From Bryobacteraceae bacterium (lineage in GTDB: Bacteria; Acidobacteriota; Terriglobia; Bryobacterales; Bryobacteraceae), in contig DATGIH010000526.1 in assembly GCA_035295865.1 (NCBI GenBank), positions 14,066 to 78,065 of the forward strand: a DNA stretch of 64,000 nt. Direction: 5' to 3'. Every line of letters starts with the position of its first letter. The stretch's first letter is position 1. Made by a program: the position numbers and the translations under genes. Positions 30,121-44,855 of this stretch are shown piece after piece. The notes under the pieces were generated by a model. The model searched no databases and was not told where the DNA came from. It was given only the letters and a program-made list of their open reading frames with translations.

Positions 30121-30196
30121 TCTAACATGGCCATGTGGATCTAACATGGCCATGTTAAGTTAACATGGCCATGTTAAACAAACATCGCCACCATGC
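30121..30196 (+). promoter_or_regulatory. Operator-like array: 3.5 tandem 19-bp units carrying the palindrome AACATGGCCATGTT
   Basis: Unit 1, 30121-30139: tctAACATGGCCATGTgga. Unit 2, 30140-30158: tctAACATGGCCATGTTaa. Unit 3, 30159-30177: gTTAACATGGCCATGTTAA, an 18-bp perfect palindrome. A degenerate fourth unit at 30178-30196 (AACATcGCCAcc) overlaps the ATG at 30193. Confidence 0.7.
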
Positions 30197-34999: not shown

Positions 35000-37492
35000 G
35001 TGCGTAACAACGGCATGGGCAACTTCCTGACCGATCTCCGCCATTCCATCCGCCTATTGATTAAATCCCCCGGATTCAGCGTGATCGCAATTGCCGCCTT
35101 GGCCTTGGGCATTGGCGCCAACACCGCCATTTTTTCCGTAGTGAATACCGTCCTGCTGCAGCCTTTGCCTTATCCCGAGCCGGACCGCATTGTGCGCGTC
35201 CAGCGCGTATACAAGAGCGGTGATATCGGAACGTCCACATCCCTTCCCAAATTCTTTGCTTGGAAGAACAACAACCAGACCCTGGATGCCCTGGCCATTT
35301 ACGATTTCGCAGGACCCGGGCTCAATCTGGGTTCGAGCGATCATCCGCAGCAGGTCAAAGGAATTCACGTTTCGCAGGACTACTTCCGGGTGTTCGGAGT
35401 CTCGCCCGCCATGGGCCGGACCTTCACATCGCAGGAAGATCAGCCGGGCGGCGCGAAAGTCGCGGTGGTCAGCAACACACTTTGGCAATCGCGCTTCGCC
35501 AGCGATCCAAACCTGGTTGGAAAGCCCATTCTACTCGGCGGCGATCCCTACACTGTAGTGGGTATTCTTTCCGCAGGGTTCCGTCCCGATCCGCCGGCAG
35601 AGGTCTTCCTGCCACTGCAAGCCGACCCCAACAGCAGCAACCAGGGTCATTATCTGCTCTGCGCGGGCCGGATGAAACCGGGTGTAACCCTGCAGGCGGT
35701 AAATGCCAACCTGAAAGTATCCGCCGACCGTTTCCGCGCGACCAACCAAGCGCTTATGGACGGGAACGAAAGCGCCGGCGCAATGCCGCTGCGCGACTCG
35801 CTGGTGGGCGATGTTCGAATGCCGCTTCTAATTCTGGTGGGAGCGGTGAGCTTTGTTCTGTTAATCGCCTGCGCGAATGTCGCGAACCTGCTGCTGGCTC
35901 GCGCGGCCGCGCGGCAACGGGAAATCGCTATCCGCACGGCAATCGGCGCCAGTCGTGGACGTCTGGTTCGCCAGCTGCTTACGGAAAGCTTGATGTTGGG
36001 CTTGCTCAGCGGATTGGCCGGCTTTGTTCTCGGGGCCTGGGGCGTTCGCGCGTTGCTGGCTTTGAGTCCGGGAAACTTGCCTCGCATCAATGACGCTCAG
36101 CATGCCGCGTCCATGGTCACGGCGCTCGATTGGCGTGTTCTGGCGTTCACGATCGGCGTCTCGCTTTTTACCGGCGTTCTCTTCGGACTTTTTCCCGCGG
36201 TGCAAATATCCCGCATGGACGTGAACTCGTCGCTGAAAGAAACCAGCGGGCGTTCGGGAACCGGCCTCCGTCAAAATCGTGTGCGAAGCATACTGGTGGT
36301 CAGCGAGATGGCGTTGGCCGTGATTCTGCTCACTTCCGCCGCTTTCATGATCCGCAGCTTCCTCGGATTGCGTTCCGTGCAGCAAGGCTTCGACCCGCAC
36401 AACGTCATCACGATGCAAACATCCATGACGGGCGGTAAGTATGATTCCACCGCCAAAGCCGACAATATGATCCGGCAAGTGGTGCAACGCATTGAGTCCC
36501 TGCCTGGCGTGCAATCCGCAACAGCGGCCATCAGCCTTCCGGTGGAAGGCAGCATCGACATCCCGTTCATCATCGACGGCAGGCCACTCGACAAAAACAG
36601 CCCCTTCCACGGCGACGAGCAATGGCGCTGCGTGAGTAATCATTATTTCGCCACCTTCCATGTCGCTCTGCTGCGTGGCCGCGCTTTTGACGATCGCGAC
36701 AACCTAAAGTCAGCGCGGGTGATGATCGTCAACCAGGCATTCGCCAAGAAATATTGGCCCAACGACAACCCAATCGGGAAAACGATGACCATCGGAAAAG
36801 GCCTCGGGAAGGATTTCGAAGATCCTTCGCGGCAGATTGTCGGAATCGTTGGCAATGTTCGTGAGAGCGGATTCAGCGGAGCCCAACAGGAAGTGATGTA
36901 CGTTCCGCAAAGCCAAATCTCGGATGGCCTCACCAAACTCGCGAACGGCGTGCTTCCGTTGAGCTGGGCTGTCCGCACCGCCATGGATCCCGCGTCCCTC
37001 AGCACAGCCATTCAGCACGAATTTCTCGCCGTCGACGGTCAGTTGCCCGTTTCCAACATCCGCACCATGGAGCAGGTGATTTCGGAATCCTCGGCGCGGC
37101 AAAATTTCAATACGCTGCTGCTGAGTATTTTCGCCGGACTTGCGTTATTGCTGGCGGCAATCGGAATTTACGGTCTGATGTCCTACACGGTGGAACAACG
37201 CTCGCAGGAGTTTGGAATTCGGATGGCCTTGGGCGCTGGGACCGGCGAAATGCTAGGCATGGTGGTACGCCAAGGCATGCTGTTGGCCGGTATCGGCTTG
37301 ATCATCGGTTTGGGCTCGGCGTATGCAATTTCAAAAGTGCTCGCCAAAGTTCTGTCGGGGATTCAGGTGAATGATCCCGTGGCCTACACCACTGTCGCGC
37401 TCACCCTGATTTCCGTCGCATTCTTCGCCACCGTGATTCCGGCACTGCGCGCCACGAAAGTGGATCCGCTCCACGCGCTCCGCTACGAATAG
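35000..37492 (+). CDS. ADOP family duplicated ABC permease (MacB/FtsX-like)
   Basis: N-terminal DLRHSIRLLIKSPGFSVIAI, two MacB_PCD-like periplasmic domains and two FtsX 4-TM modules, ending ATKVDPLHALRYE. The start may instead be the ATG at 35015. Confidence 0.88.
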   Translation: MRNNGMGNFLTDLRHSIRLLIKSPGFSVIAIAALALGIGANTAIFSVVNTVLLQPLPYPEPDRIVRVQRVYKSGDIGTSTSLPKFFAWKNNNQTLDALAIYDFAGPGLNLGSSDHPQQVKGIHVSQDYFRVFGVSPAMGRTFTSQEDQPGGAKVAVVSNTLWQSRFASDPNLVGKPILLGGDPYTVVGILSAGFRPDPPAEVFLPLQADPNSSNQGHYLLCAGRMKPGVTLQAVNANLKVSADRFRATNQALMDGNESAGAMPLRDSLVGDVRMPLLILVGAVSFVLLIACANVANLLLARAAARQREIAIRTAIGASRGRLVRQLLTESLMLGLLSGLAGFVLGAWGVRALLALSPGNLPRINDAQHAASMVTALDWRVLAFTIGVSLFTGVLFGLFPAVQISRMDVNSSLKETSGRSGTGLRQNRVRSILVVSEMALAVILLTSAAFMIRSFLGLRSVQQGFDPHNVITMQTSMTGGKYDSTAKADNMIRQVVQRIESLPGVQSATAAISLPVEGSIDIPFIIDGRPLDKNSPFHGDEQWRCVSNHYFATFHVALLRGRAFDDRDNLKSARVMIVNQAFAKKYWPNDNPIGKTMTIGKGLGKDFEDPSRQIVGIVGNVRESGFSGAQQEVMYVPQSQISDGLTKLANGVLPLSWAVRTAMDPASLSTAIQHEFLAVDGQLPVSNIRTMEQVISESSARQNFNTLLLSIFAGLALLLAAIGIYGLMSYTVEQRSQEFGIRMALGAGTGEMLGMVVRQGMLLAGIGLIIGLGSAYAISKVLAKVLSGIQVNDPVAYTTVALTLISVAFFATVIPALRATKVDPLHALRYE

Positions 37493-37503: not shown

Positions 37504-37833
37504 TTACTTCGCCGCTTCGGGCTCGGTCGCCGGCGTTGTGGATCCTCGGTGGCACGTGTAGCAAGTGACGTGCATCTTACCGTCCGGGAACTTGCCGTTG
37601 ATGTCCTTAGCCAGGTTGATCATGTGGCGCGCGACTTCTTTGTGATGCTTTTCGTCGCTCGCAAAATCTCCCGGGACGTGGCAGAAATCGCACTTCTGTC
37701 CGAGCGCGGCGCTAAAGGCTTTCATGGTGGGGATCAAATTCTCATCCGCTGGAAGGATCTTCAAGTTTTTCGGCGCCGGATGTTGCGCGAACGCAAATGC
37801 CGCCAGGAGTAGTGCCGTAACGGTTAGTTTCAT
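37504..37833 (-). CDS. Small periplasmic c-type cytochrome (two CxxCH motifs)
   Basis: Signal peptide MKLTVTALLLAAFAFA. Heme motifs CDFCH and CYTCH. The overall pattern resembles the reaction-centre cytochrome c subunit-like family. Confidence 0.75.
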   Translation of the reverse strand: MKLTVTALLLAAFAFAQHPAPKNLKILPADENLIPTMKAFSAALGQKCDFCHVPGDFASDEKHHKEVARHMINLAKDINGKFPDGKMHVTCYTCHRGSTTPATEPEAAK

Positions 37834-37970
37834 AGCAGCCTATTATGACACGGCTCGCGTCGGCTTGCATGTTAAATCCTTTATCTCCCTCACTTCGGGG
37901 CGGCTGGCGCTGCTTGGGAACAATCCACGTTGTTTGAGCGTTATACTTCAGGGAGCCGGGAAAAAATCTT

Positions 37971-38993
37971 ATGAGTTTCCTTTCCAAGCAATTCATCGAT
38001 GTAATTCAGTGGACCGAGCCGGAGGACGGCATTCTGGCCTACCGCTATCCCATGGAAGACATGGAGATCCAGAACGGGGGCAAGCTAACGGTTCGCGAGT
38101 CCCAGGCAGCTGTTTTCGTGAACGAAGGCCGCATCGCCGATGTGTTTGGGCCGGGTCTGTACACACTCACAACGCAGACTCTCCCGATTCTCACGTACTT
38201 GATGAATTGGGACAAAGCGTTCAAATCGCCGTTTAAATCGGACGTGTACTTCTTCTCGACTCGCGTCGAGACCGATCAGCGATGGGGCACCGCGACGCCG
38301 ATCACGATTCGCGATAAGGAATTCGGCGCGGTTCGCATGCGCGGATACGGGATTTACGCTTACCGGATTATCGATCCCAAAGTTTTCCACCAGAAGATTA
38401 GCGGCACGCGGGATATCTACCGCGTGGCGGACCTGGAAGGGCAACTGCGCAACACTATCGTCGCGCGCATGACCGATACGTTCGCGCAAAGCACTGTTCC
38501 GTTCCTCGATATGGCCGCGAGCCAGCAGGAGCTGGGCGAAAAAATCACAGCAAATCTCAAGCCGGCGTTCGCCGATTTCGGATTGTCGCTCGAAAGCTTC
38601 GTCGTCGAAAACATCTCGCTGCCGGACGAGCTGCAAAAGATGCTCGACCAGCGTATCAGCATGAACATGTTGGGCGACATGGGCAAGTACACGCAGTTCC
38701 AGGTGGCGCAATCCATCCCTGTGGCCGCCGCGAATGAAGGCGGCGGAGGCGTTGGGGTGGGCGTCGGATTAGGCGCCGGACTTGGATTGGGACAAGCATT
38801 CGGCCAAGCAGTGACGAACGCAGTGCGTCCGCCCGAGCCTGGCGCTCCGCCATCGTCGCCAACGCCCGCGGCACCAATAGGAGGCGCGCCCATAGCGCCG
38901 GCGCCCGCTGCCGCGACGAAGTTCTGCGTCAATTGCGGGAAGCCAATCCCGAAGACCGCGAAGTTCTGTCCGGAGTGCGGCGGCGCACAATAG
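37971..38993 (+). CDS. SPFH/Band-7 family protein with C-terminal zinc ribbon (YdjI / 'virion core protein'-like)
   Basis: N-terminal FIDVIQWTEP...ILAYRYP and an SPFH-like core. A Gly/Pro-rich linker is followed by the C-terminal FCVNCGKPIPKTAKFCPECG zinc ribbon. Confidence 0.8.
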   Translation: MSFLSKQFIDVIQWTEPEDGILAYRYPMEDMEIQNGGKLTVRESQAAVFVNEGRIADVFGPGLYTLTTQTLPILTYLMNWDKAFKSPFKSDVYFFSTRVETDQRWGTATPITIRDKEFGAVRMRGYGIYAYRIIDPKVFHQKISGTRDIYRVADLEGQLRNTIVARMTDTFAQSTVPFLDMAASQQELGEKITANLKPAFADFGLSLESFVVENISLPDELQKMLDQRISMNMLGDMGKYTQFQVAQSIPVAAANEGGGGVGVGVGLGAGLGLGQAFGQAVTNAVRPPEPGAPPSSPTPAAPIGGAPIAPAPAAATKFCVNCGKPIPKTAKFCPECGGAQ

Positions 38994-38999
38994 GAGAGC

Positions 39000-39073
39000 T
39001 AAAACGGGGACACCATGGGCAAGCGTCCGAGATCGGATCCGGCCAAGCGAAATCCAATGGCGTCCCAGTTTTG
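39000..39073 (+). repeat. Long-stem hairpin element, copy 1 (terminator/attenuator-like)
   Basis: The left arm AAAACGGGGACACCATGGG pairs imperfectly with the right arm CCAATGGCGTCCCAGTTTT. Shares the blocks CGGGGACAyCATGGGCAAGyGTCCG and AAATCC(C)AATGGyGTCCC with 41806-41875. Ends in TTTT. Confidence 0.6.
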
Positions 39074-39107
39074 TACAGCCCGATCACTGTGCTAGCCTTC
39101 TAAAAAC

Positions 39108-39455
39108 ATGAGCGGTCTTGAATGGATCGTGGAAGCACACGGCTGCAGTCCGGCGGCGCTCACCGATCAGCACTCGCTCGAAACGCTTTTCGGCGCGCTC
39201 ATCGGTGAGCTGGACCTGCATCCGCTCGGTAAAACCAACTGGCATCAGTTTCCGCACACCGGCGGAATTACGGGCGTGACGCTGCTTTCGGAATCGCACA
39301 TCGCATGCCATACTTTTCCGGAATACGCGTCGCTGTGTCTCAATATTTTCTGCTGCCGGCCGCGCGCCGGCGCGGATTTTGAATCGCTCCTGCGCGAACA
39401 TTTGGGCGCGTCGCATGTATCGGTGCGAAAAGTCGACCGCCCCTACGAATCATGA
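39108..39455 (+). CDS. speH: S-adenosylmethionine decarboxylase proenzyme (small bacterial class)
   Basis: Self-processing site context LLSESHIACHTFPE. Size (115 aa) fits the short prokaryotic AdoMetDC class. Confidence 0.8.
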   Translation: MSGLEWIVEAHGCSPAALTDQHSLETLFGALIGELDLHPLGKTNWHQFPHTGGITGVTLLSESHIACHTFPEYASLCLNIFCCRPRAGADFESLLREHLGASHVSVRKVDRPYES

Positions 39456-40090
39456 GCGCGCCCGCTGCGAATTGTCCCAATTGCGGCGCTCCGGTTCATT
39501 TTCGCTGGTCGAGCGCCGTGCAAACCACTTGCGAATTCTGCCATTCCATTTTGGTCCGCACCGACGTAAACCTGGAAAAAGTGGGCGAAGTCTCCGACTT
39601 GCCTCCCGACGCCTCGCCAATCCAAATCGGAACCGAAGGCGTGTATCAAAACAAAGCCTTTGTCGTAATCGGTCGCATCGTTTACGAATACGAACAAGGC
39701 TACTGGAACGAATGGCACCTGGTTTATAACGACAGCACCAACGGCTGGTTGTCCGACGCCCAACTGGAATACGATCTTTCCTGGCAAACACAACCCCCGG
39801 CGCACATGCCTGCATCGAGTGAAATCCAGTGGGGCGCCCAATTCCAATCGAACAGCAAAAGCTACACCGCCACATCGCTGACCAAAGCGCACTATAGGGG
39901 CGTCCAAGGTGAACTGCCCTTTCAGTACTGGGATAAATCCGATCTGCTTTTCGCAGATCTCCGCACGCCAACGGGAGATTTCGCCACCATCGACTACAGC
40001 GAAGATCCGCCGCTGCTTTTTGAAGGACGCGCCGTCGAATTCGACGATCTGCATTTCAAAAACCTGCGGCTGTTTGAGGGATGGTCCTGA
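39452..40090 (+). CDS. DUF4178 domain protein with N-terminal zinc ribbon
   Basis: CPNCGAP...CEFCHS ribbon, then a DUF4178-like block (GVYQNKAFVVIGRIVYEYEQGYWNEWHLVYNDSTNGWL). ATGA overlap with the AdoMetDC gene. Confidence 0.7.
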   Translation: MSAPAANCPNCGAPVHFRWSSAVQTTCEFCHSILVRTDVNLEKVGEVSDLPPDASPIQIGTEGVYQNKAFVVIGRIVYEYEQGYWNEWHLVYNDSTNGWLSDAQLEYDLSWQTQPPAHMPASSEIQWGAQFQSNSKSYTATSLTKAHYRGVQGELPFQYWDKSDLLFADLRTPTGDFATIDYSEDPPLLFEGRAVEFDDLHFKNLRLFEGWS

Positions 40091-41403
40091 TGGCGAGTTC
40101 AATCGTCACACCACCCGTCGTCAAACCGAAATCTCTCAACTGCCCCGGATGCGGCGCGGCGGTGGAAATTCGTGGATTCGCGCACACACTCAACGCAGTC
40201 TGTCCGAACTGTCTGAGCGTTTTGGATGCCACCAACCCCCAGATCGAAATTCTCCAGCGATTCCAGCGCAAAGAGCGGATCCAGCCTAAGATCCCGCTGG
40301 GTACGCGCGGCAAGCTCGCGAACATCCCGTATGAAGTGATCGGATTTCAGCGGCGCGAAGTGCAGTCCGACAGCGACGTGTATTGTTGGGATGAATACTT
40401 GCTATTCAATCCCTACTACGGATTTCGCTACCTCACGGAATACCAAGGCCACTGGAACGTGGTGCGTGTGCTCGGCGCGCTCCCAGTCGAAACCGTGTCT
40501 ATCGGCAAGCCCTCAGTCGAATTTCAAGGCCGCCGCTACCGCCATTTCGACAGCCTGCAAGCCCGAACCAACTACATCCTGGGCGAATTCCCCTGGCAGA
40601 TCCGCGTGGGCGATGTGGTGGATGATCGCGATTTCGTTTCGCCGCCGTACATGCTTTCCGCCGAGACCACGTCGGGCGAACTCACCTGGTCGTTCGCCGA
40701 ATATACGCCGGGCAAACAAATCTGGGCTGCCTTCCAACTTCCCGGATCGCCGCCGGCGACGTCTGGAATTTTCGCCAATCAGCCGTCGCCCTATGAAGGA
40801 AGACCCGGCTCGGTGTGGCGCACCTGGCTCTGGCTGACTGTGGCGCTAGTCGCCATCGCTCTGATCTTCAGCATGATTTCCTCGAACAAGGAAGTCTTCC
40901 AGAACACTTACTTGTTCACGCCCGGATCGAAAACGGATGCCTCGTTCGTCACGCCAACATTTGAGCTGACCGGCCGCACTTCAAACGTGGAAATTGAGGT
41001 CCACACGGATCTCAACAATAATTGGGCCTATTTTAATTTCGCGCTCATCAATGAAGACACCGGCCAGGACTTCGATTTCGGCCGTGAAGTGAGTTACTAC
41101 CGCGATAGTGACGGCAGCGAAGGCAGCCCGAAAGATTCGGCGATCGTCTCGCGCGTTCCGTCCGGAAAGTATTATCTTAGGGTCGAGCCTGAAATGGAAT
41201 CCAGAACCTTTCAATCCATGAGCTACGAACTCACCATTCGCCGCGACGTGCCCACCCACTTGTTCTTTTGGATTGCAGGCCTACTGCTGTTGATCCCGCC
41301 GATATTTGTTTCAGTCCGCGCCGCAGGCTTCGAAGCTGCGCGCTGGCGCGAAAGCGATTATGCGTCGTCCACCTCGAGCGGCGGCGGAGGAGATGACGAT
41401 TGA
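40081..41403 (+). CDS. Membrane-anchored DUF4178 domain protein with N-terminal zinc ribbon
   Basis: CPGCGAA...CPNCLS ribbon and a DUF4178-like block (YEVIGFQRREV...YCWDEYLLFNPYYGFRYLTEYQGHWN). Two TM helices bracket a ~130-aa outer domain. 10-nt overlap with the upstream gene. Confidence 0.7.
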   Translation: MVLMASSIVTPPVVKPKSLNCPGCGAAVEIRGFAHTLNAVCPNCLSVLDATNPQIEILQRFQRKERIQPKIPLGTRGKLANIPYEVIGFQRREVQSDSDVYCWDEYLLFNPYYGFRYLTEYQGHWNVVRVLGALPVETVSIGKPSVEFQGRRYRHFDSLQARTNYILGEFPWQIRVGDVVDDRDFVSPPYMLSAETTSGELTWSFAEYTPGKQIWAAFQLPGSPPATSGIFANQPSPYEGRPGSVWRTWLWLTVALVAIALIFSMISSNKEVFQNTYLFTPGSKTDASFVTPTFELTGRTSNVEIEVHTDLNNNWAYFNFALINEDTGQDFDFGREVSYYRDSDGSEGSPKDSAIVSRVPSGKYYLRVEPEMESRTFQSMSYELTIRRDVPTHLFFWIAGLLLLIPPIFVSVRAAGFEAARWRESDYASSTSSGGGGDDD

Positions 41404-41588
41404 AATCCCCACTGTTCCTGATTTACGGCATTATGCTGATCGGCGGCGCCACTTATGCGCACATCCAGGGCTGGGCCCCGACTCGCATCAACCAGCAACG
41501 CGTGTCACCCAAAAGCATTCGCGATAACCCTGGTGCGTACCGCTCCATGTACGGCGGCGGCTATTCTCGATACATCGGAGGTAAATGA
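41400..41588 (+). CDS. Small single-pass membrane protein
   Basis: The TTG start overlaps the preceding TGA. One TM helix (LFLIYGIMLIGGATYA) and a Gly/Tyr-rich tail. Supported mainly by its tight packing in the operon. Confidence 0.4.
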   Translation: MKSPLFLIYGIMLIGGATYAHIQGWAPTRINQQRVSPKSIRDNPGAYRSMYGGGYSRYIGGK

Positions 41589-41591
41589 TCC

Positions 41592-41804
41592 ATGACCGAA
41601 TTCCATCCCGGCGCTTTGTTGAACGCCATCGTATACGCCGCGCTCGGCATCTTGATTTTCGCCGTGGCCTTCATCGTCATCGACAAGGTGACGCCCTACC
41701 ATCTCTGGAAAGAGATCGTGGAGGACAAAAACATCGCGCTCGCGATCCTGATCGGGGCCATGTCCATCGGCATGTGCATCATCATCGCGGCGGCAGTTCA
41801 CTAA
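41592..41804 (+). CDS. DUF350 domain membrane protein (YjfL-like)
   Basis: 70 aa with two TM helices. ALLNAIVYAALGILIFAVAFIVIDKVTPY...IALAILIGAMSIGMCIIIAAAV is typical of DUF350. Confidence 0.7.
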   Translation: MTEFHPGALLNAIVYAALGILIFAVAFIVIDKVTPYHLWKEIVEDKNIALAILIGAMSIGMCIIIAAAVH

Positions 41805-41805
41805 T

Positions 41806-41875
41806 AAATCGGGGACATCATGGGCAAGTGTCCGGCACGCCCCATTTCGCAAATCCCAATGGTGTCCCCGATTTT
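41806..41875 (+). repeat. Long-stem hairpin element, copy 2 (terminator/attenuator-like)
   Basis: AAATCGGGGACATCATGGG ... CCCAATGGTGTCCCCGATTT form a ~19-bp near-perfect stem around a ~30-nt loop, followed by a T-run. Starts 2 nt after the DUF350 stop. Confidence 0.65.
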
Positions 41876-41889
41876 GCAGTCCACACAGC

Positions 41890-43380
41890 ATGACTCTTGC
41901 TCTCTTTCTCTCCGTTTTCCTGATTGCCGCCTGCGGCCTCATCTATGAGCTGATCGCCGGAACGCTCGCCAGCTACCTGCTCGGCGACAGCGTCTTCCAG
42001 TTCTCCACCATCATCGGCTGCTATCTGTTCGCAATGGGAATCGGCAGCTATCTTTCGCGATTCCTGCGCCGCGGCTTAGTCGCCCGATTCGTATCCGTGG
42101 AGCTGATGGTCGGCCTGGTCGGCGGATTCTCATCTTCCCTGCTCTTTCTCGCTTTCGCTTACACCGAAGCGTTCCGTCTGATTTTGTACATCGTGGTGAT
42201 CCTGGTTGGAACGCTGGTCGGCCTCGAAATTCCGCTGCTGATGCGGATTCTGAAAGAGCGTTTCCAGTTCAGCGAGCTGGTCTCGCAGGTCCTCACGTTC
42301 GATTATTTAGGCGCGCTCGGCGCGTCGCTTCTGTTTCCCATTCTGCTTGTTCCGAAACTCGGCTTGGTTCGCTCTGCGCTGGTCTTCGGAATCTTGAACG
42401 CCGGCGTAGCGCTGTGGTCGACCTTTCTTTTTCGCGAACAGCTCGGTCCGGGCTTGGGTCTGCGCGCCGGGTGCATCGCCGTGCTCGCCATGCTCGGCGC
42501 GGGAACCATTTTCGCCGACCGCATCTCATCCGCCGCCGACAACAATCTCTACGCCGACGAAGTGATCTTCAGCCGGAACACGCGCTATCAGCGGATTGTT
42601 CTGACGCGCTGGAAGGACGACCTGCGGCTGTTCCTCAATTCACACCTGCAGTTCAGTTCGCGCGATGAATATCGTTATCACGAGGCATTAGTACATCCGG
42701 GGCTTGCGGCGCTTCCGGGAGCGCGGCGCGTCCTGGTTATGGGCGGCGGGGATGGCTTAGCGGTCCGCGAGATTCTGAAGTATCCGACGGTGGAAAGCGT
42801 GACGCTGGTGGATCTCGATCCCGAAATGACCGGCCTCTTCTCCACACACTCGGTGTTATCTTCGTTGAACGGACATTCGCTCACTGCGCCGCGCGTTCAT
42901 GTCATTAACGCGGATGCCTTTCGCTGGCTGGACACGAATCCGGATCGCTTCGATTTCATCGTGGCGGATTTTCCCGATCCGACGAGTTATTCGCTCGGAA
43001 AGCTTTACACGACGACTTTTTATCGGCTGGCCGCCAAACATCTTAGCGCCGGCGGGCTTCTTGTGGTCCAAAGCACGTCACCGCTCTTTGCGCGGCAGTC
43101 GTATTGGTGCATCGTCGAAACGGTAAAGCAGGCGGGACTCCGGACGTATCCCTATCACTTATATGTGCCCTCGTTCGGCGAATGGGGATTCGTGATCGGC
43201 AGCCAAGCTCAGTATGAATTTCCGCAGCAGCTTCCGAGCGGTCTTCGATACCTGACGAACGTTCGCGACATGTTCGATTTCCCGAATGACATGAAGCCGA
43301 TCGCGGTGGAACCGAATTATCTGAACAATCAGATTCTGGTCCGCTATTACGAGCGCGAATGGAAAGACATCGCGAGGTGA
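41890..43380 (+). CDS. speE: Polyamine aminopropyltransferase (spermidine synthase-like) with N-terminal multi-TM domain
   Basis: About 7 TM helices precede the catalytic domain, which carries VLVMGGGDGLAVREI, LVDLDPEM and ADFPDP motifs. Confidence 0.85.
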   Translation: MTLALFLSVFLIAACGLIYELIAGTLASYLLGDSVFQFSTIIGCYLFAMGIGSYLSRFLRRGLVARFVSVELMVGLVGGFSSSLLFLAFAYTEAFRLILYIVVILVGTLVGLEIPLLMRILKERFQFSELVSQVLTFDYLGALGASLLFPILLVPKLGLVRSALVFGILNAGVALWSTFLFREQLGPGLGLRAGCIAVLAMLGAGTIFADRISSAADNNLYADEVIFSRNTRYQRIVLTRWKDDLRLFLNSHLQFSSRDEYRYHEALVHPGLAALPGARRVLVMGGGDGLAVREILKYPTVESVTLVDLDPEMTGLFSTHSVLSSLNGHSLTAPRVHVINADAFRWLDTNPDRFDFIVADFPDPTSYSLGKLYTTTFYRLAAKHLSAGGLLVVQSTSPLFARQSYWCIVETVKQAGLRTYPYHLYVPSFGEWGFVIGSQAQYEFPQQLPSGLRYLTNVRDMFDFPNDMKPIAVEPNYLNNQILVRYYEREWKDIAR

Positions 43381-44855
43381 CTCGCCGCACTATTCTGGCG
43401 GCGGCTCCCGCGTTGATTGGTCTGGCGAAGAAAACAGACCGCCCCATCACCGGCAGCTTCGTCAACGACGCATTTCTGACTGGCCACCGATTGCGCGATC
43501 ATGCCACGTTCCAAAAGCCGGCGCATCAGCAGCGCGTCCCGATCGTAATTATCGGCGGCGGTATCGCCGGATTAAGCGCGGCTTGGGAACTCGACCGCCG
43601 CGGCATCCACGATTTTGTTTTGCTCGAAATGGAACAGCAAGCCGGCGGTAACTCGCGCTGGGGCGAAAACGAAATCTCGAAATTTCCCTGGGCTGCGCAC
43701 TACGTTCCTGTGCCCGCGAAAGGCGAGTCGCTCGCCCGCGAGCTTTTCGAAGAACTCGGCGTGTTCCGCGATGGCAAGTGGGACGACCGCGTGCTCTGCT
43801 TCGATCCCCAGGAGCGCCTCTTCCGCTACGGCCGCTGGCAGGAGGGCATCGAACCGGAAGCGGGAGCAAGTCCGGGCGATCGCGATCAGTATCGCCGCTT
43901 CAGTGAGAAGATCAACCAGTTCCGCGCCTCCGGCGAGTTCACCATTCCGATGCAGCGCGGCGCAAAGCTCTCGCCGCTCGACAAACTTTCGATGGCGGAT
44001 TGGCTTTCGAGTGAGCGCTTCGACTCGCCGTCGCTCCGCTGGTATATCAACTATGCATGCCGCGACGATTACGGCGCGCTCGCCCGCGATACTTCCGCGT
44101 GGGCCGGCATCCACTATTTCGCATCGCGCGATCCGGAGGAGAAGGGACCGCTTACCTGGCCCGAAGGTAACGGCTTCATCGCGCAGGCTTTGATCAAGAA
44201 GCTAAGCCGCTACATTTACACCGGCTCTGTGGTTTATCACGTCACGCGCGATCTGCACGTGCTGACCGAGCAAACCGAATACATCGCCGAAAAATTGATT
44301 TTCGCAGCGCCAACATTTCTTGCGCAGTATTTGGTAGAAGGCGCGCCGCCGGCGGCCGGCTTCCAATACTCGCCCTGGCTCACCGCCAACCTGACGCTCG
44401 ATCGAATTCCGGATCAAAAAGGCGCGGAACCTGCCTGGGACAACGTGATCTACGATTCCCCCGCGCTTGGTTACGTGAACGCAACACACATGAGTGTCGC
44501 CACTCACACCGAGCGAACGGTTTGGACGTTCTACTGGTCGCTCGCTGAGTACACGCCGCCTGCAGCTCGGACGCTCCTATTGGCCAAGGATTGGAACTAC
44601 TGGAAGGAAGCGATTCTAACGGATTTGTCACGCGCCCACCCGGATATCCGGCAGTGTGTGAGCCACATCGACATCATGCGGATGGGCCACGCGATGATTC
44701 GTCCGGCATCCGGGTTTATGTTTTCGGGCGAACGCGAGCGATGGTTAAAAGCGCAAGGCCGAATCCACTACGCAAATTCCGATTTGAGCGGATTTTCGAT
44801 TTTTGAAGAAGCGCAGTACCGGGGCGTAAGCGCTGCTCGGGACGCTATCCGCTAG
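43377..44855 (+). CDS. Tat-exported FAD-dependent oxidoreductase (amine-oxidase-like)
   Basis: The GTG at 43377 forms a GTGA overlap with the speE stop and gives the twin-arginine signal (M)TRRTILAAAPALIGLA. Dinucleotide fold VPIVIIGGGIAGLSAAWEL. Confidence 0.75.
   Translation: MTRRTILAAAPALIGLAKKTDRPITGSFVNDAFLTGHRLRDHATFQKPAHQQRVPIVIIGGGIAGLSAAWELDRRGIHDFVLLEMEQQAGGNSRWGENEISKFPWAAHYVPVPAKGESLARELFEELGVFRDGKWDDRVLCFDPQERLFRYGRWQEGIEPEAGASPGDRDQYRRFSEKINQFRASGEFTIPMQRGAKLSPLDKLSMADWLSSERFDSPSLRWYINYACRDDYGALARDTSAWAGIHYFASRDPEEKGPLTWPEGNGFIAQALIKKLSRYIYTGSVVYHVTRDLHVLTEQTEYIAEKLIFAAPTFLAQYLVEGAPPAAGFQYSPWLTANLTLDRIPDQKGAEPAWDNVIYDSPALGYVNATHMSVATHTERTVWTFYWSLAEYTPPAARTLLLAKDWNYWKEAILTDLSRAHPDIRQCVSHIDIMRMGHAMIRPASGFMFSGERERWLKAQGRIHYANSDLSGFSIFEEAQYRGVSAARDAIR

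Follow-up and report, generated by a model that had tools for sequence, protein, structure and literature searches.

What does an operon do that brings the chemistry of decarboxylated S-adenosylmethionine (dcAdoMet) together with several membrane-associated protein families, and from which PspA is missing? The question is raised by positions 37971-44855 of a 64,000-nucleotide stretch of DNA (the window) from a Bryobacteraceae bacterium (assembly GCA_035295865.1, contig DATGIH010000526.1), where eight co-directional open reading frames (ORFs) lie on the forward strand. Their Pfam families are Band_7_1 with a zinc ribbon, AdoMet_dc, DUF4178 (twice), DUF350, Spermine_synth and NAD_binding_8/Amino_oxidase, and one further ORF encodes a small membrane protein. 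All of these ORFs and family assignments, named in a first-pass annotation of the window, were recovered, and the same genes are called on an identical soil-metagenome contig of the Joint Genome Institute (JGI). Close homologs carry the names Bryobacteraceae or Acidobacteriia, which identifies the organism as an acidobacterium of the Bryobacterales. We lean modestly towards reading the operon as a PspA-free trans-membrane aminopropylation/oxidation module with a core of DUF4178, DUF350, an aminopropyltransferase (APT) fused to seven transmembrane (TM) helices, and a flavin amine oxidase exported by the twin-arginine translocation (Tat) pathway. This core is often joined by S-adenosylmethionine decarboxylase (AdoMetDC) and by a YdjI-like SPFH/zinc-ribbon protein.

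Gene order and partners across phyla

The neighbourhood of the APT fusion was compared among genomes sampled by a profile-guided scan with one genome per species (80 loci among more than 592 matches), and partners were mapped with iterated hidden Markov models built from the window proteins and run on stop-to-stop ORFs. For counting partners we used the 54 loci whose flanks reach at least 6 kb upstream and at least 2 kb downstream. DUF4178 was present in 47 of these loci, DUF350 and the flavoprotein in 45 each, AdoMetDC in 38, SPFH in 34 and the small protein in 27. DUF4178, DUF350 and the flavoprotein stood together beside the fusion in 40 loci, and all six partners were found in 16.

The first-pass proposal was to be given up if the gene order proved restricted to close relatives. 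This is not the case: synteny was found in Acidobacteriota, Gemmatimonadota, Beta- and Gammaproteobacteria, Myxococcota, Leptospirales, Elusimicrobiota, Melainabacteria, Oligoflexia and Nitrospinota, i.e., in at least eight phyla. Acidobacteriota typically keep all eight genes in exactly this order, as does one metagenome-assembled genome of Gemmatimonadota. Elsewhere, the operon lacks the small protein (Oligoflexia, Melainabacteria) or SPFH (Myxococcota), is split into two divergent units, DUF350-SPFH-DUF4178-AdoMetDC and fusion-flavoprotein (Oxalobacteraceae, Zoogloea), or is reduced to the fusion by itself (some Rhodocyclales, Competibacteraceae). An apparent flavoprotein-AdoMetDC fusion in Nitrospinota (locus L175) was discarded as an artefact in which a run of N joins two ORFs. 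In six loci from different phyla (L153, L163, L168, L184, L186, L193) we observed, directly downstream of the flavoprotein, a multi-TM protein about 390 aa long (L153:13251-14444 and its homologs) that has no Pfam match; it is absent from the window and may be an additional component.

The absence of PspA, stated in the first-pass annotation, is borne out. With PspA and YjfJ of E. coli as queries, phmmer gave no match in the 64-kb window at E<=0.01, the eight operon proteins have no Pfam match to the TPM or PspA families, and PspA_IM30 occurs in only 2 of the 80 loci (L168 and L169), both from Vicinamibacteria. In these two loci, the PspA_IM30 genes (L168:14358-15116 and L169:3401-4126, both on the reverse strand) lie near the fusion/flavoprotein pair, and the DUF350 protein encoded at L168:17163-18023 and L169:5687-6559 is unusually long (about 290 aa). 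L168 and L169 represent a PspA-containing sister architecture within the Acidobacteriota.

Within the window, most junctions of the operon overlap or abut. The AdoMetDC and first DUF4178 genes share a 4-nt ATGA overlap at 39452, the two DUF4178 genes overlap by 10 nt at 40081, the second of them meets the 62-aa ORF in a 4-nt TTGA overlap at 41400, and 3 nt separate this ORF from the DUF350 gene, which starts at 41592. The only real intergenic gaps are 38994-39107 (114 nt) and 41805-41889 (85 nt). Thus, the junctions proposed earlier stand, except for a GTGA overlap at 43377, where the flavoprotein gene more likely begins upstream (see below). Scans for sigma-70 promoters and simple terminators around the operon gave nothing above shuffle expectation.

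These data bear on a rival explanation of the locus, an ordinary housekeeping speD-speE pathway that happens to lie beside unrelated membrane genes. The NCBI equivalog name of the fusion is “polyamine aminopropyltransferase”, and only one copy of each enzyme is present in the 64-kb window, which both speak for such a pathway. However, the conservation of gene order and partners spans phyla, linkage of the partners persists even in the rearranged clusters of Oxalobacteraceae and Zoogloea, most junctions overlap or abut, and a TM fusion together with a Tat-exported oxidase is foreign to housekeeping speDE. We therefore disfavour this explanation and consider it highly improbable.

The links between these families had been noted in surveys of Psp systems, as the first-pass annotation stated. 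Ravi et al. 2024 (mSystems) described operons in which the 7-TM/spermine-synthase fusion, YjfL/DUF350 and DUF4178 accompany a CesT/Tir-PspA dyad, as well as PspA-free variants with a Band-7 protein in place of the dyad, plus AdoMetDC and a polyamine oxidase. Their operons (S. oneidensis SO_3763-3766 and the M. tuberculosis type) share with ours the combination of fusion, DUF350 and DUF4178. The differences are in the SPFH protein, which here combines Band_7_1 with a C-terminal zinc ribbon in the manner of YdjI, whereas the variant of Ravi et al. 2024 has Band-7 with two TM segments and SHOCT; in two DUF4178 paralogs (one of them bitopic) and a conserved 62-aa protein that is not mentioned there; and in the lack of a lipoprotein (Ctha_1186 or DUF1190), an ATP-grasp ligase and a ribbon-helix-helix regulator. 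The operon is an acidobacterial member of a published, mechanistically uncharacterised class of polyamine-linked envelope operons and does not represent a new type of gene neighbourhood. What the present analysis adds is a family-wide topology prediction for the fusion, a Tat/lipobox signal of the flavoprotein that extends over phyla, a corrected start of the flavoprotein gene, a conserved small protein, and recognition of the intergenic hairpins as a dispersed repeat.

The enzymes and the sidedness of the fusion protein

The aminopropyl donor would be supplied by the class 1b-type AdoMetDC proenzyme (115 aa, 39108-39455; Pfam AdoMet_dc, 85.9 bits). Aligned to the solved class 1b enzymes of T. 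maritima and Aquifex (1tlu and 2iii), it retains the self-cleavage site Glu62-Ser63 (39291-39296), which the first-pass annotation had rightly called intact, as well as His68 and Cys82/83 within the motif ESH...HTFPE...FCC. Its score against the NCBIfam equivalog TIGR03330 is 64.5 bits, the cutoff being 75.65. Since SpeD homologs are able to neofunctionalise into arginine or ornithine decarboxylases, the specificity of this protein for AdoMet, rather than for arginine or ornithine, is only probable on the basis of its sequence.

The fusion protein (496 aa, 41890-43380) consists of a TM domain (aa 1-207, 41890-42510) and an APT domain (aa 223-440, 42556-43209). The Spermine_synth match (122 bits) falls into the C-terminal half, behind the TM domain, and in the AlphaFold2 model (pLDDT 83.5) the catalytic domain comes after seven long TM helices, in agreement with the earlier description of an aminopropyltransferase joined to about seven TM segments. 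Nearly the whole protein (aa 3-493) matches NCBIfam NF002956/PRK03612 with 683 bits (cutoff 472), while the model NF037959, “fused MFS/spermidine synthase”, gives 28.1 bits and stays under its cutoff of 40. The APT domain aligns at 2e-33 to T. thermophilus SpeE (1uir), a triamine/agmatine aminopropyltransferase, and Foldseek places the model next to 1uir/3anx (TMt 0.71-0.73), with matches dominated by the APT domain. In this alignment the GGGDG motif for dcAdoMet binding, the acidic ribose/adenine ligands and the catalytic DxxD motif are all in place, and Q234, GGGDG 285-289, D308/D310, D342, D360 and D363 are invariant or nearly so among 47 homologs with 35-59% identity. The TM domain, too, carries polar and acidic residues conserved throughout these homologs (E20, E113, D138, Y139, N170), which fits binding of a cationic substrate. 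The family counts 1,373 representatives at 50% clustering and E<=1e-30, some of which may be canonical SpeE, and according to the literature it reaches M. tuberculosis and Shewanella.

On which side of the membrane does the APT domain work? Lysine and arginine number 8-10 in the N-terminus and loops 2, 4 and 6 of the fusion versus 0.6-1.8 in loops 1, 3 and 5, a bias that holds for all 103 homologs, of which 47 are diverse and 56 closer. According to the positive-inside rule, the N-terminus should be cytoplasmic, and since seven TM helices follow it, the APT domain is predicted to lie outside the cytoplasm. Such an arrangement is unexpected because dcAdoMet is made in the cytoplasm. The first-pass scheme, with synthesis at the membrane followed by oxidation in the periplasm, presupposes a cytoplasmic APT domain, which is the opposite of this prediction.

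In a further-reaching reading, which we consider less likely than not, the APT domain would be periplasmic, and the N-in 7-TM domain, with its conserved Glu20, Glu113, Asp138, Tyr139 and Asn170, would pass the dcAdoMet dication outward. An amine of the envelope could then be aminopropylated outside the cytoplasm; the Tat-exported flavoprotein would act on the product, and the bitopic DUF4178 protein would sense it by way of its beta-sandwich in the periplasm. To our knowledge, there is no precedent for a cofactor derived from S-adenosylmethionine being used outside the cytoplasm. The predicted extracytoplasmic location of the APT domain is the most interesting lead from the analysis: if true, it would account for the failure of such fusions to complement speE and would point to an aminopropylation chemistry of the envelope.

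The opposite arrangement would be a cytoplasm-facing membrane spermidine or polyamine synthase, whose product is exported by its own TM domain or by DUF350, protects the envelope and is turned over by the periplasmic oxidase. This variant has a precedent in P. aeruginosa, where PA4773-PA4774 (speD2-speE2) provide surface polyamines that protect the outer membrane, and where a Tat-exported polyamine-oxidising enzyme (spermidine dehydrogenase) has been proposed to act in the periplasm. That system resembles the one studied here in its AdoMetDC/APT pair, there a second pair dedicated to surface polyamines, and in a Tat-exported, putatively polyamine-oxidising enzyme, although SpeE2 is soluble and its operon is under PmrAB control and contains no DUF4178, DUF350 or SPFH partners. 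It is also in favour of this variant that the APT domain keeps all residues for dcAdoMet binding and catalysis, its closest structures being those of true polyamine APTs, that AdoMetDC is linked in 38 of the 54 loci, and that the Tat signal predicts a periplasmic oxidase. However, the charge distribution places the APT domain outside in all 103 homologs, behind seven TM helices; the eight proteins include, by Pfam, no diamine-producing enzyme; and Michael's group, with reference to Li et al. 2019, reports that experiments have shown bacterial membrane-protein/APT-like fusions to play no part in making spermidine or spermine. We regard this variant as rather doubtful. The same evidence goes against two elements of the first-pass annotation: its polyamine route was thought to be self-contained, but the operon holds no source of the amine acceptor, and local polyamine synthesis becomes doubtful in view of the statement on the fusions.

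The last gene of the operon encodes a protein of the flavin adenine dinucleotide (FAD) amine-oxidase superfamily (498 aa, 43359-44855). It matches Amino_oxidase PF01593 over aa 69-428 with 31.4 bits (gathering threshold 19.8), in addition to NAD_binding_8. Its N-terminus, MERHREVTRRTILAAAPALIGLA, fits a twin-arginine signal (aa 1-24, 43359-43430), with TRRTIL and a hydrophobic h-region; in terms of the [ST]-R-R-x-F-L-K-type motif followed by an h-region, the window has TRRTILAAAPALIGLA, so that Tat export is predicted. The [ST]RRxFL motif and the h-region are common to about 55 homologs from many phyla, which strengthens the earlier assignment of the signal, and in the non-acidobacterial homologs a lipobox cysteine usually follows it. 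Because close orthologs share the N-terminal MER(H/D)R ahead of the RR motif, ATG 43359, which creates a 22-nt overlap with the fusion gene, is a more likely start than GTG 43377.

The nearest family models of the flavoprotein leave room for another interpretation, in which the aminopropyl group is placed onto an amine of the membrane or cell wall, for instance on a phospholipid head group, on a substituent of lipid A or linked to peptidoglycan, altering the surface charge as MprF, ArnT and EptA do, and the flavoprotein trims or matures the modified lipid. Its nearest NCBIfam models include PigB, HpnE and CrtI, which act on lipophilic substrates, it is lipobox-anchored in many lineages, and the catalytic domain of the fusion is tethered to a 7-TM domain with conserved intramembrane acidic residues. 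The literature, moreover, raises “aminopropylation of other substrates”, a possibility put forward by Ravi et al. 2024. On the other hand, an aminopropylated lipid or peptidoglycan is not known, and no lipid-handling gene occurs in the operon; we find this interpretation, which is wholly inferential, unlikely.

Returning to the trans-membrane aminopropylation/oxidation module, we infer its substrate, complex and physiology as follows. Decarboxylated AdoMet would be made by the cytoplasmic AdoMetDC, and the membrane-embedded aminopropyltransferase would use it at the membrane to aminopropylate an acceptor amine that is probably not simply putrescine. On the periplasmic face, the flavoprotein, exported by Tat and in many lineages lipid-anchored, would take over the product. 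SPFH and the zinc-ribbon DUF4178 proteins may organise the complex at the cytoplasmic face, and the bitopic DUF4178 protein may connect this face with the periplasm.

Several points weigh against this scheme. With 30-32% identity between the APT domain and bona fide polyamine APTs, ordinary polyamine synthesis may still be the function of this domain. The negative complementation result may concern a sister family of the fusion, since NCBIfam separates PRK03612 from NF037959. A sequence search of the PDB matched the flavoprotein to solved structures in the FAD/dinucleotide-binding N-terminus only, which makes its assignment to the amine oxidases weak, and the enzymes of lipophilic substrates among its best NCBIfam neighbours (PigB, HpnE, CrtI) point in the same direction. 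That SPFH, DUF4178 and DUF350 form a complex with the enzymes is suggested by gene neighbourhood only. Finally, we know of no experiment on any component of this operon type.

The non-enzymatic partners and related systems

The first gene of the operon (37971-38993) encodes a 340-aa SPFH protein (Pfam Band_7_1, 262 bits, 4e-78; Zn_Ribbon_1, 4e-7). Behind Band_7_1 (aa 24-232, 38040-38666) come a linker rich in Gly, Ala and Pro and, at the C-terminus, a zinc ribbon (aa 316-337, 38916-38981); there is no TM-like segment, and the protein shows the features of YdjI/SamI-type SPFH proteins. In B. subtilis, YdjI/SamI is a cytosolic Band_7_1 SPFH protein that is recruited by membrane partners and organises a membrane stress complex; according to Ravi et al. 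2024, it carries a C-terminal zinc ribbon. The operon differs from the B. subtilis PspA-YdjGHI (SamGHI) system in lacking PspA, the TPM-domain YdjH and the NTF2-like YdjG and in having DUF4178, DUF350 and the enzymes as partners.

The two DUF4178 proteins score almost equally in Pfam (56 and 56.7 bits) and differ in architecture. The first (212 aa, 39452-40090; 6e-15) is soluble, with an N-terminal CxxC...CxxC zinc ribbon and no TM segment. The second (440 aa, 40081-41403), as delineated by Pfam, alignment and an AlphaFold2 model (pLDDT 78.8), is bitopic: a zinc ribbon (aa 21-44) and the DUF4178 domain (aa 73-209), both presumably cytoplasmic, precede a beta-sandwich (about 120 aa, aa 271-388) that is flanked by TM1 (aa 242-267) and TM2 (aa 394-421), and the protein ends in a conserved FExxRWRESDY tail with an acidic C-terminus. 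For this model, Foldseek returned only generic beta-sandwich/jelly-roll matches, all with TM-scores under 0.25 across the full query, from which no functional analogy follows. In the ortholog L002 (GCA_003427375.1, 6.8 Mb), the gene call for the second DUF4178 protein spans a mere 171 aa and comes after 776 nt without a call (L002:8303-9594); a frameshift, a pseudogene or an erroneous call may be the cause.

The small membrane protein (62 aa, 41400-41588) starts with TTG behind a GGAGGAG Shine-Dalgarno sequence and consists of an N-terminal TM helix and the near-invariant motif NVPKSVRDNPGxYRS...Y.GGK. Neither Pfam nor NCBIfam gave a family match. Its homologs occur in 38 of the 80 loci (Acidobacteriota, Gemmatimonadota, Elusimicrobiota, Leptospira), and the conserved TM helix extends upstream of the ATG called by JGI, a start that is too late and truncates the helix. 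The protein is a member of a conserved small-protein family that belongs to the operon and is not annotated in Pfam or NCBIfam. The next gene (41592-41804) encodes a half-size DUF350 (YjfL family) protein of 70 aa with two TM helices (57.8 bits, 1.6e-15), covering profile positions 5-65 of 133 and having a weak phmmer match to E. coli YjfL.

DUF4178 and DUF350 are among the commoner uncharacterised membrane-associated families, and in the literature we found no functional studies of either of them or of the mycobacterial homologs (Rv2599-Rv2601). In E. coli yjfIJKLMC, a DUF350 protein (YjfL) adjoins a polyamine-modifying enzyme, as it does here; that enzyme is an ATP-grasp ligase, whereas here an aminopropyltransferase and an oxidase are found. 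Homologs of YjfI, YjfJ (PspA-like), YjfK, YjfM and YjfC were detected by phmmer neither in the window nor in the 80 loci.

Class 1b AdoMetDC, membrane fusions with a spermidine synthase-like domain and DUF350 had reportedly been linked by Li, Kurihara, Kim, Liang and Michael in 2019, who are said to have proposed aminopropylation of acceptors other than putrescine. Their clusters are reported to contain class 1b AdoMetDC, a membrane/APT fusion and DUF350, as the operon does. The fusion studied here falls into PRK03612 and not into NF037959, and it may differ from the proteins that they tested. The present analysis sharpens three testable points: the flavoprotein as a conserved Tat substrate and often a lipoprotein, the predicted extracytoplasmic catalytic domain, and the presence of the VRDNPGxYR small protein in the operon.

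The intergenic hairpin and the flanking sequence

Each of the two real gaps contains, as had been noticed earlier, a copy of one hairpin of roughly 70 nt (39001-39073 and 41806-41874, forward strand) with the common core CGGGGACAyCATGGGCAAG...CCAATGGyGTCCC. Its architecture includes an A-tract, a stem of 16-17 bp (CGGGGACAyCAT / ATGGyGTCCCCG), a conserved 5' loop box GGGCAAGCGTCCG, a variable loop and a T-tract, resembling a terminator or a repetitive extragenic palindromic (REP) element. The predicted folding energies are -36.9 and -33.0 kcal/mol (z-scores -2.2 and -3.5), and the 64-kb window holds these two copies only, with 0.03 expected by chance. A position ahead of two enzymes of the S-adenosylmethionine pathway could suggest an operon-specific riboswitch or leader. 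This candidate was ruled out by the dispersed copies, by the absence of the hairpin from L002 and by the lack of an Rfam match.

The distribution of the hairpin is not that of the operon. It is present at both sites in L003, where the operon is 93% identical, and at neither site in L002, an ortholog with 81% identity in which the SPFH gene is absent and the DUF350-to-fusion spacing is 3 nt. A metagenome scan revealed more than 118 stretches carrying the 18-mer of the element, 23 of them with the complete palindrome; 5 of these 23 lie within orthologous operons, and the remaining 18 stand in unrelated surroundings with no operon gene in the vicinity, typically in short gaps just past the stop codons of long ORFs. 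Compensatory changes at the stem base are seen in an alignment of 20 copies. Since most complete copies lie elsewhere and L002 does without the hairpin, it is not specific to the operon: it is a dispersed REP-like or terminator-like repeat of Acidobacteria and not a defining part of the system. The hairpins in both gaps are thus real but uninformative with respect to operon regulation; within the operon they may act at most as partial terminators (attenuation) or as mRNA stabilisers.

The element shares with REP repeats and bacterial interspersed mosaic elements (BIMEs) its dispersed, intergenic occurrence after stop codons, the imperfect palindrome with compensatory changes at the stem base, and occasional tandem arrangement. 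It differs from them in a long loop (about 30-40 nt) and in the A- and T-tract flanks, which look like a bidirectional terminator. One metagenome contig carries at least three tandem or nested copies (L076:35-370), which suggests that the element is capable of local amplification.

Directly upstream of the operon, positions 35000-37492 encode a duplicated MacB_PCD/FtsX permease of 830 aa, whose architecture we take to be that of a typical acidobacterial orphan permease. It is followed, on the opposite strand, by a small cytochrome c gene (37504-37833), and the adjacency of both genes to the operon is not kept in other lineages. In L003, a HepT/MNT (nucleotidyltransferase) toxin-antitoxin pair is found between the cytochrome c and SPFH genes (L003:5002-5621); the window has no such pair in the corresponding interval (37834-37970). 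Farther upstream, at 30123-30190, there is a cluster of overlapping palindromes built on TAACATGGCCATGTTA, for which Rfam gave chance-level miRNA matches, and which could be an operator or another repeat family.

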